This document shows positions 9,817 to 11,125 of a stretch of DNA of 64,000 nt, in pieces (position 1 is the stretch's first letter; each line of letters begins with the position of its first letter). The DNA lies in UHGV virus genome UHGV-0091736. The stretch is one strand, 5' to 3'. Made by a program: the position numbers and the translations under genes. The notes under the pieces are model-generated. The model was not told the origin of the DNA. It made no database searches and saw only the letters and a list, made by a program, of their open reading frames with translations. The stretch comes from a virus.

Positions 9817-11125
9817 TCACATTTCAAAAGAGATTCCACGACCCGCTTCATCGGCAAACCGAACTGTACGGGTTTGAGGCTCTAATACTTCAGGGTTGTT
9901 GGCAACAAATCGATCAGCGAGGATATCTCCCAAATCTTCTACCCCATCTTCTACCATATCTTCATCAGTCCACACAGTCCTAACCGGTACATCAAAGTCA
10001 CCAGCAGCAAAACCCTGACCGGAGAATTGACGTGCGCCGACAGTAAAGCCATTTGGTCGACCACGAGAAGGTCTAGCCCTCCATCTCTCCATAGAATCAC
10101 TTGTAATACCAAGATCTTCAAAAGAAGCTCTAGGAGGGGAGCTTGCACTTCTCGCCTCTTGTGATCGGCTCATTGCAGGGGCTACAAGAACCCCTTCAAT
10201 TGCGTTGTGTTGGTTAGGTTCATCTTCACGTCCAAGCAGATCTCCACTTGTATTGGTTATTAGATCTGTCAATCCTTCAGACCAATATGCACGAATCTGA
10301 CTGGAGCCATGAATGTTTGACATAACCTGAATCTCTTCATAAGATATACCAAAGAATCGACTCATGTCTCGGTTAACACAATATTGAGCACTTGTTGTAT
10401 CCTCAACAAGAGCAACCTGACCCCATTCATTGATCAGATGACTGACCGGTTGAGGTGTAGGAAGATATCGAGATTGTGCCATATATTGATATGCAACAGA
10501 TGGAGCGGAGAATCTTAATACCTGTGAATTAGGCCACTTCTTATGAACATACTTGATTTCACGACCAGAAACAACTACTGGACAGGGAGAGGTCATAGCC
10601 AAATATCCATGAGGGGTCATGAATAGGTTGTCAAGAGTAATCGCACCACGGCACATCATAGGAAAGCTATCCAACACCTCTTCAACAGAAGTAGGATAGT
10701 TAAACATGAATTGGATACGAACCCCACTCCACTGGAATTCAATAATATCAGTGAAAGTCAACGGAGAACCTTCAGCGTATGGTCCATTTGTGGCCTCAGC
10801 AAGAAGGGATGAATATTCAATATCTTGTGACTCAAGCCACTCCTTAACGTTGCTTTCAACCTCTCTTCCAAGATCTTGCCACTGGTCATGGCGGATATAA
10901 GTATATTCAGTTCTTGGTGTCTGTCCTCTGACAATAAAAATATCAATATCATGCGGAGCTGTATTGTTAAGAACAGCATCACGAACAGCCCCACCAGTGA
11001 TGATAGGACAGATACCGTCTGGAATCAAGTTGTTGTTAATCAACTGTTCAATGAAGTGACGACCAACAGTGATATCAGGTTGTTGAGCAACCTTATCTTC
11101 AATTCGGTTAATCGGGATAACAATC
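9817..11125 (-). CDS. nucleotidyltransferase, CCA-adding enzyme / poly(A) polymerase head-domain family (start likely MIVIP at 11125, not track start 11184)
   Basis: GGAVRDAVLNNTAPHDIDIFIV matches the GG.VRD...D.D signature. Confidence 0.55.

Follow-up and report, generated by a model that had tools for sequence, protein, structure and literature searches.

A putative Gad2-like nucleotidyltransferase in the replication operon of a phiEco32-like coliphage

Background

Gad2 is a predicted nucleotidyltransferase (NTase) of 400 amino acids. Bacillus phage SPbetaL7 becomes fully sensitive to Gabija when the gene is deleted, and expression of a Gad2 homologue in trans abolishes Gabija defence; SPbetaL7 Gad2 is also toxic on overexpression (bioRxiv 10.1101/2023.05.01.538930). 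Here, a gene for a putative Gad2-like NTase is described in UHGV virus genome UHGV-0091736. The window (the whole stretch of DNA that was analysed, 64,000 nucleotides) comes from a phiEco32-like podophage of the genus Kuravirus, subfamily Gordonclarkvirinae, a coliphage. The gene lies on the minus strand, between genes for an exonuclease subunit of DNA polymerase and a dCTP deaminase (dcd). Judging from its sequence, the product is most aptly seen as a divergent member of the Gad2-like phage nucleotidyltransferases that bears a tail and is encoded in a replication operon.

Two other groups of enzymes need to be considered. In class II nucleotidyltransferases, motif B (RRD) recognises the 2'-OH on the ribose of the incoming nucleoside triphosphate (NTP), and motif D (EDxxR) is the amino-acid template which chooses CTP and ATP. 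Full-size CCA-adding enzymes are found among the RNA-repair genes of jumbo phages, beside RNA ligases (PMC7824862). The second group consists of stand-alone 'poly A polymerase head domain' NTases of podophages (phrog_1614), examples of which are found in the phiKMV-like phage LKD16, phiAS7, Pectobacterium phage PP2 and Emajogi (gp22). Emajogi gp22 is encoded next to a primase/helicase gene and is toxic when overexpressed; some of its homologues are annotated 'Gad2 family' (bioRxiv 10.64898/2026.09.15.751885).

The catalytic head

The head of the window protein has the features by which the Pol-beta superfamily is recognised: an hG[GS] loop, a Dx[DE] pair, a probable third carboxylate on the neighbouring strand and an alpha-beta-alpha-beta-alpha-beta fold. 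A preliminary description of this DNA had pointed to a GGAVRD...DIDIF signature, and the translation bears this out (Table 1). Motifs and conservation were counted in 27 family representatives clustered at 50%. M1, G45, G46, R49, D50, D60, D62, F64, Y117, I128 and Q139 are invariant in all 27; most of these are the nucleotide and metal binders of motif A and the DxD pair. D127 is nearly invariant among close homologues and, from the fold and its place on strand 124-133, is likely to be the third Pol-beta carboxylate.

Two elements of the class II enzymes are replaced. Motif B (RRD) is found in the head of none of the 27 representatives; F-P-x-x-C-R-G-A stands there instead, with F155 invariant in alignments of 10, 26 and 41 sequences and P156 nearly so. 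Motif D ([ED]DxxR) is likewise missing at the corresponding place in 27 of 27, where R-[DE]-x-x-Y-x-x-K-K (PVVVSGREIKYVHKK in the window protein) is seen instead. The same pattern check was positive in the controls: E. coli Cca has RRD at 90 and EDPLR at 130, and PcnB has RRD at 160 and EDPVR at 204. With its GGAVRD / DIDIF / D127 site intact, the protein is predicted to be a catalytically competent, minimal NTase of the Pol-beta type.

Relationship to Gad2 and to tRNA enzymes

SPbetaL7 Gad2 (OQ921347.1, 109563-110765) was used as the reference, and a Gad2-clade alignment was built from it and its homologues. In profile comparisons with hhalign, the Kuravirus family matches the Gad2-clade profile with a probability of 86% (E 4.8e-6) over 111 columns, which correspond to residues 21-175 of the window protein and 14-128 of Gad2. 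The match to enterobacterial Cca, with or without PcnB, reaches 50-58% (E 1e-4) over 23-61 columns, of which motif A alone is reliable; the Gad2 clade and Cca (with PcnB) do not match significantly (0.4%, E 0.15). Gad2 and the Kuravirus family have F[PD]..C.GA (FDFTVCMGA in Gad2, FPMMCRGA in the window protein) and P.V.S..R...Y..K in common, and neither has RRD or EDxxR. In a greedy, low-confidence hhalign extension, PVVVSGREIKYVHKK falls opposite PIVSLLRVQKYTDK of Gad2 (residues 145-158).

Precomputed matches to the Pfam model for Gad2 (PF26128) are found for 28 of 44 close homologues of the window protein, and for 119 of 120 listed homologues of SPbetaL7 Gad2; the exception is a half-length fragment of 226 aa. 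The match of P0002, which is 87% identical to the window protein, is flagged 'weak' (1e-5 < E <= 1e-3), and no precomputed PF26128 match is listed for Nieuwekanaalvirus-type homologues. Three bridging proteins (P0148, P0200 and P0152) are matched by both the Kuravirus-family and the Gad2-clade profiles. The gene for P0148 is located in a phage early-gene island, adjoining genes for a Macro-domain protein and Acb5 (anti-CBASS). On these comparisons, the head of the window protein appears to be homologous to the validated Gad2 clade, at superfamily level only, and the nearest characterised relative in sequence would be Gad2 and not a tRNA enzyme.

The preliminary description had placed the protein in the tRNA nucleotidyltransferase or poly(A) polymerase family. 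The superfamily, the head fold and motif A stand; a role in CCA addition or tRNA repair is not borne out by the features that could be examined. In a hidden Markov model (HMM) search, PF01743 (PolyA_pol) reaches 18.0 bits, below its gathering threshold of 23, and aligns only at positions 3-50 of its 126 (motif A), and the NCBIfam models for CCA enzymes and PcnB (NF009814, NF008137 and TIGR01942) give no match at E<=1. Searches of PDB sequences with the single sequence and with a profile returned nothing significant; CCA enzymes appear at E ~1, through motif A only. A CCA or tRNA function is unsupported by those defining features that were open to examination. This corrects the recurrent database label 'class II CCA-adding enzyme domain', which implies a tRNA function that the sequence does not support. 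Existing labels for the protein also include 'nucleotidyltransferase' (PHROG 12715, RefSeq); it matches phrog_12715 with E 1e-222 and phrog_1614 with E 1e-6.

Predicted structure and C-terminal tail

An AlphaFold2 (AF2) model of residues 1-300 is confident, with a predicted local distance difference test (pLDDT) score of 85 and a predicted TM-score (pTM) of 0.82. Its best structural matches in Foldseek are CCA-adding, CC-adding and A-adding enzymes and poly(A) polymerase I (PAP I), with E values from 4e-6 to 3e-4; when normalised to the query, the TM-scores of these matches are only 0.31-0.41. The predicted structure has no counterpart of the tRNA-binding neck, body and tail helical domains. 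The head is followed by a small, less conserved helical region, in which identity between genera is 21-24%, and by about 150 residues predicted to be disordered in the full-length model (from residue ~283 to 436). The net charge is -11 over residues 291-436. Tail length in the family alignment varies from 0 to about 200 aa. In the model, a head of class II type is therefore followed by a short helical extension and an acidic tail of ~150 residues. Net charge and pI are uninformative as a test of nucleic-acid binding: the mean for the family core is -9, and the head and neck of E. coli Cca have -8.

The C-termini of the family (P0048-P0074; 9820-9850 (-) in the window) are rich in Trp and other aromatic residues at the ends of the disordered tails. 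A Trp is found within the last 10 residues in 9 of 25 representatives (binomial p ~0.004), and an aromatic residue within the last 8 in 18 of 25 (p ~0.006); both tests are post hoc and uncorrected for phylogeny. By analogy with the tails of SSB or T7 gp2.5, these aromatic ends could be a docking motif.

Evolutionary rate and selection

The ratio of nonsynonymous to synonymous substitution rates (dN/dS) between the window gene and that of ES17 or phiEco32 rises along the protein, from 0.10-0.13 in residues 1-215 through 0.17-0.26 in residues 216-290 to 0.29-0.31 in the tail. In neighbouring replication genes it is 0.04-0.08. Identity between genera is 94-96% for the primase-helicase and 79-87% for the exonuclease subunit, and 35-38% for the whole NTase (40-44% for its head). 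Within Kuravirus, dN of the NTase gene is ~10x that of the primase-helicase gene and dS is 3-5x higher; the rise in both suggests exchange of old alleles.

The gene is under purifying selection, with a tail that is still constrained. The evidence for a real, working gene consists of the dN/dS of 0.10-0.31, the invariant catalytic residues and the detection of the SU10 orthologue by mass spectrometry, on one peptide, among early gene products (PMC4281155). Invariant catalytic residues combined with a fast-diverging surface and tail are expected of a protein that meets host factors; they are not expected of a housekeeping tRNA enzyme or of a fixed replisome subunit. The contrast in rate with the neighbouring genes can be read as arms-race-like, which supports a role in counter-defence.

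The gene, its neighbours and its distribution

The minus-strand open reading frame (ORF) extends over 9817..11184 if a GTG start is used. The ATG at 11127-11125 is the sensible start, and the orthologues all begin at the same place with MI.IP. In the span of 9817-11125 given in the preliminary description, 11125 is the last base of the start codon; the coding sequence (CDS) covers 9817-11127. The same description had put the gene between exonuclease and dcd genes, and this is confirmed by PF01612 on one side and PF22769 on the other. The ~3-kb region around the gene has 90-92% DNA identity to Escherichia phages 1-6af, FH3, ES17 and others. The phiEco32 orthologue, gp73, is 82% identical to the window protein and is annotated 'hypothetical protein'.

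The ATG begins 1 nt past the exonuclease stop codon (11129-11131), which suggests translational coupling. The same 1-nt junction is seen in the three named genera and in L008, an uncultured relative; a second uncultured relative (L011) has the same gene order, but an exonuclease-NTase gap of 18 nt. The order exonuclease-NTase-dcd is found in all loci examined, and the NTase gene belongs to the core set shared by Gordonclarkvirinae and the uncultured phages related to them. In L008 and L011 (contigs of ~80-90 kb) the order is GATase ... GGACT, DnaB-type primase-helicase, exonuclease, NTase and dCTP deaminase, with thioredoxin and ThyX further downstream.

When 1.84 billion representatives were searched exhaustively with the profile, 422 matches were obtained at E<=1e-3 and 18 at E<=1e-30. 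Members of the tight NTase family have 274-482 aa. Among 50,697 isolated phage genomes, the gene is present in 98 records, all of them Gordonclarkvirinae; tblastn with a distant member (P0071) returned the same 98 records and no further group of isolated phages. More distant relatives are stand-alone 'poly A polymerase head' proteins of 170-230 aa from T7/phiKMV-like and other phages.

The gene belongs to a leftward cluster of early/middle genes. A sigma-70-like sequence (TTGACC-18-TATATT) is located just upstream of its ATG, and a 'promoter' is annotated there in the SU7 record. In a sigma-70 scan the number of sites in the region was not above that in shuffled sequences, and this site falls within the conserved coding sequence of the exonuclease. 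The phiEco32 gp36-sigma promoter element, TAATGTATA, occurs in 4 exact copies in the window, compared with 0.61 expected by shuffling; none of the 4 copies is near the NTase gene. The coordinates of the features discussed here and below are collected in Table 1.

Table 1. Coordinates of the NTase gene, its parts and other features of the window
Feature	Residues	Position	Strand	Remarks
NTase, complete CDS		9817..11127	-	436 aa + stop; phiEco32 gp73 orthologue
Pol-beta / class II-like catalytic head	1-215	10483..11127	-	conserved
Motif A, GGAVRD	45-50	10978..10995	-	NTP triphosphate-binding loop; translation checked
DIDIF	60-64	10936..10950	-	metal-binding D60 and D62; translation checked
D127	127	10747..10749	-	likely third catalytic carboxylate; D/E in 26/27 representatives
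FPMMCRGA	155-162	10642..10665	-	place of class II motif B (RRDxTINA); aligned by hhalign with FDFTVCMGA of Gad2
PVVVSGREIKYVHKK, motif R-[DE]-x-x-Y-x-x-K-K	183-197	10537..10581	-	motif in 23/27 representatives; place of CCA-enzyme motif D (EDPLRVLRxxRF)
Small helical region	216-285	10273..10482	-	AF2 helices 209-220, 247-259, 263-272, pLDDT ~65-92
Acidic disordered C-terminal tail	286-436	9820..10272	-	pLDDT 25-46 in full-length model
DNA polymerase 3'-5' exonuclease subunit		11129..11686	-	upstream; PF01612, phrog_38876/403
dCTP deaminase (dcd)		9241..9795	-	downstream; PF22769, E 1e-31
HNH endonuclease ORF		8748-9272	-	overlaps 3' end of dcd
Sigma-70-like sequence		11140-11169	-	TTGACC-18-TATATT
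Primase-helicase, coding parts		12525-14090 and 11680-11937		split by intron
Group I intron		11984-12604	-	RF00028
HNH ORF in intron		12113-12448	-	
ThyX		6028-6684		
PhoH-like ORF		3630-5348	-	572 aa
GATase/amidoligase cluster		15483-23937	-	upstream of replication genes
tRNA-Arg(UCU), anticodon TCT		27782-27858	-	ARAGORN; reader of rare AGA codon; 3' CCA genomically encoded
TAATGTATA		3610-3618	-	gp36-sigma promoter element
TAATGTATA		40785-40793, 47721-47729, 63306-63314	+	gp36-sigma promoter element

A candidate role in counter-defence

Kuraviruses are widely isolated coliphages and candidates for therapy, and they are insensitive to restriction and other tested defences; Gordonclarkvirinae as a whole are unusually resistant to the defences tested, and no inhibitor which would account for this is known (PMC11990801). 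The NTase is among the few enzymatic candidates for this insensitivity, and it is the only core gene found that links Kuraviruses, distantly, to a validated counter-defence enzyme. The protein may be an active Gad2-like counter-defence or host-interaction enzyme; we give this reading a probability of roughly 0.4. The general idea put forward earlier, that the NTase answers a host defence, is compatible with the evidence.

The enzyme would be made together with the replication proteins in early to mid infection. With Mg2+ and an NTP (or dNTP) it would nucleotidylate a substrate which is not a CCA-less tRNA; candidate acceptors are proteins, nucleotides and free 3' ends of DNA. The modification may neutralise, or avoid triggering, a Gabija-like defence of the nuclease-helicase type which monitors phage replication or DNA ends, and the fast-evolving tail may be the element that binds a partner. 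By analogy, the toxicity of SPbetaL7 Gad2 and Emajogi gp22 suggests that such enzymes act on host components. As the gene occurs in phages that grow on E. coli K-12 (BASEL Bas86-94), the mechanism of the Gad2 family would be open to study in a tractable system.

Several points weigh against a Gad2-like role. Anti-defence genes are usually accessory and located in variable islands; this NTase gene is a strictly syntenic core gene of the replication operon. The relationship to Gad2 is distant. An HMM made from the validated Bacillales Gad2 clade alone does not match the window protein, so the link to Gad2 depends on the comparison of profiles with each other, on the bridging sequences and on the wider Pfam model. 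BLASTP of the window protein against SPbetaL7 Gad2 aligns motif A only, and here motif A (GGAVRD) is nearer to that of the CCA enzymes than to that of Gad2 (GGAITS). The C-terminal half of Gad2 (residues ~200-400) has no counterpart in hhalign at default settings, and the greedy, low-confidence extension reaches only to ~224. There is no 'gad2' entry in the BASEL supplements, which include AntiDefenseFinder results, and no data on Kuraviruses challenged with Gabija were found in the literature; Gabija is outside the set of BASEL-tested systems. It should also be noted that the mechanism of Gad2 was still unknown according to a review of February 2026 (PMC12904381), and 'Gad2-like' gives no chemistry yet.

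Alternative explanations

A host-takeover enzyme is an unlikely alternative. It would tail host RNAs in the manner of poly(A) polymerase, or act on host RNAs or tRNAs as a toxin of the MenT type, and so shut down expression or destabilise transcripts. The toxicity of related phage NTases on overexpression, the place of the gene in a leftward early/middle cluster and the detection of the SU10 product among early products, by a single peptide, agree with this; on the other side, the protein has neither the motifs B and D of PcnB nor its RNA-binding C-terminal region. In addition, phiEco32-like phages already shut off the host by means of gp79 and gp36 (PMC8948821).

It is rather unlikely that the NTase works with the replisome to tail, cap or otherwise nucleotidylate phage DNA and thereby confers resistance to restriction-modification (RM). 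The authors of the BASEL study noted the RM resistance of these phages, for which there is no explanation, pointed at the NTase gene and dcd, and suggested DNA containing deoxyuridine (PMC11990801); DNA marking by the NTase is a wider form of their idea. That suggestion is weakened by ThyX: as it is present, thymidine is made and deoxyuridine-containing DNA is unlikely. The synteny with replication genes in all named genera and in both uncultured relatives, coupled by 1 nt in all but L011, favours DNA marking, and the lack of RRD, the reader of the ribose 2'-OH, would be compatible with use of a dNTP. Against it, the NTase evolves far faster than the replisome proteins with which it would work. 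We know of no phage DNA-modification pathway which employs such an enzyme. A further reading, which must be thought improbable, is that the NTase is co-translated with the exonuclease subunit and tethered by its aromatic-tipped tail, and that it nucleotidylates DNA ends or replication intermediates so that these are hidden from end-sensing defences such as Gabija, and possibly from restriction enzymes. If true, this would explain the resistance of Gordonclarkvirinae to RM and other defences and would reveal the chemistry of the Gad2 family.

Repair of tRNA 3' ends by CCA addition, where ends removed or blocked by host tRNA-targeting toxins are restored, is very doubtful. The structural matches with CCA-, CC- and A-adding enzymes and PAP I, a motif A identical to that of E. 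coli Cca (GGAVRD) and the precedent of the jumbo phages are in its favour. Against these stand the absence of RRD and EDxxR from every representative but not from the controls, the lack of a body or tail domain, with a C-terminus predicted to be disordered instead, and the HMM results given above. The annotation of the related ES17 genome lists neither an RNA ligase nor a polynucleotide kinase as a partner, and a Cca enzyme is already supplied by the host. The preliminary description had also stated that no tRNA genes were evident; this was mistaken, as the window encodes a tRNA-Arg (Table 1). Maturation of the phage's own tRNA by the NTase was considered and rejected, because this tRNA-Arg carries an encoded CCA.

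Finally, the head may be a catalytically irrelevant structural or binding module while the disordered tail does the work, for example as an acidic decoy; the tail is acidic yet constrained (dN/dS ~0.3) and the C-termini are enriched in aromatics, but strict invariance is found at precisely the catalytic positions (GG..RD and D.D) and many family members are almost tail-less, which makes this highly improbable.

Other features of the region

The primase-helicase gene of the window is split by a group I intron (Rfam RF00028, 48.6 bits with a gathering score of 50, E 3e-10) that carries an HNH ORF. No such interruption is present in phiEco32, ES17 or the other loci examined, where the orthologue has 596-610 aa. 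The window dcd is a divergent allele: the protein is 99% identical to that of ES17 and 58% identical to that of phiEco32, with saturated dS, and the flanking exonuclease and primase-helicase are 97-99% identical to those of both phages. An HNH endonuclease ORF overlaps the 3' end of dcd, and this suggests that replacement of the dcd allele is linked to a homing endonuclease.

In the PhoH-like ORF, the PhoH domain covers residues 386-569 only; the 385-residue N-terminal extension has no Pfam match, and PhoH of ES17 and phiEco32 has ~247 aa. Upstream of the replication genes there is a cluster of GATase, amidoligase, COOH-NH2 ligase and gamma-glutamyl-cyclotransferase-type genes, which is kept in L008 and L011 as far as these loci reach.

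Comparison with known systems

Three known groups may be set beside the window NTase. The class II tRNA nucleotidyltransferases and PAP I (E. coli Cca and PcnB; PDB 1miv, 3h37, 3aql and 4wby) have motifs B and D and their own neck, body and tail helical domains, all of which the window NTase lacks; it aligns with them at the low TM-scores given above, falls below the PolyA_pol threshold and matches no NCBIfam equivalog. The stand-alone podophage NTases of phrog_1614 have the same minimal head fold (Foldseek against BFVD, E 7e-8 to 1e-4). They have 170-230 aa, without a helical extension or disordered tail, and are 12-18% identical to the window NTase.

Gad2 of SPbetaL7 is, like the window NTase, a phage Pol-beta-type NTase of ~400 aa without a nucleotide template of the CCA type; in both, F[PD]..C.GA replaces RRDxTINA and P.V.S..R...Y..K replaces EDxxR...RF. 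The C-terminal half of Gad2 (residues ~200-400) is folded and conserved, with many invariant positions, whereas the window NTase has short helices and a disordered tail. The phage that encodes Gad2 is temperate, infects Bacillus and carries the gene in a variable locus for anti-defence; the window NTase is a core replication-operon gene of virulent coliphages.

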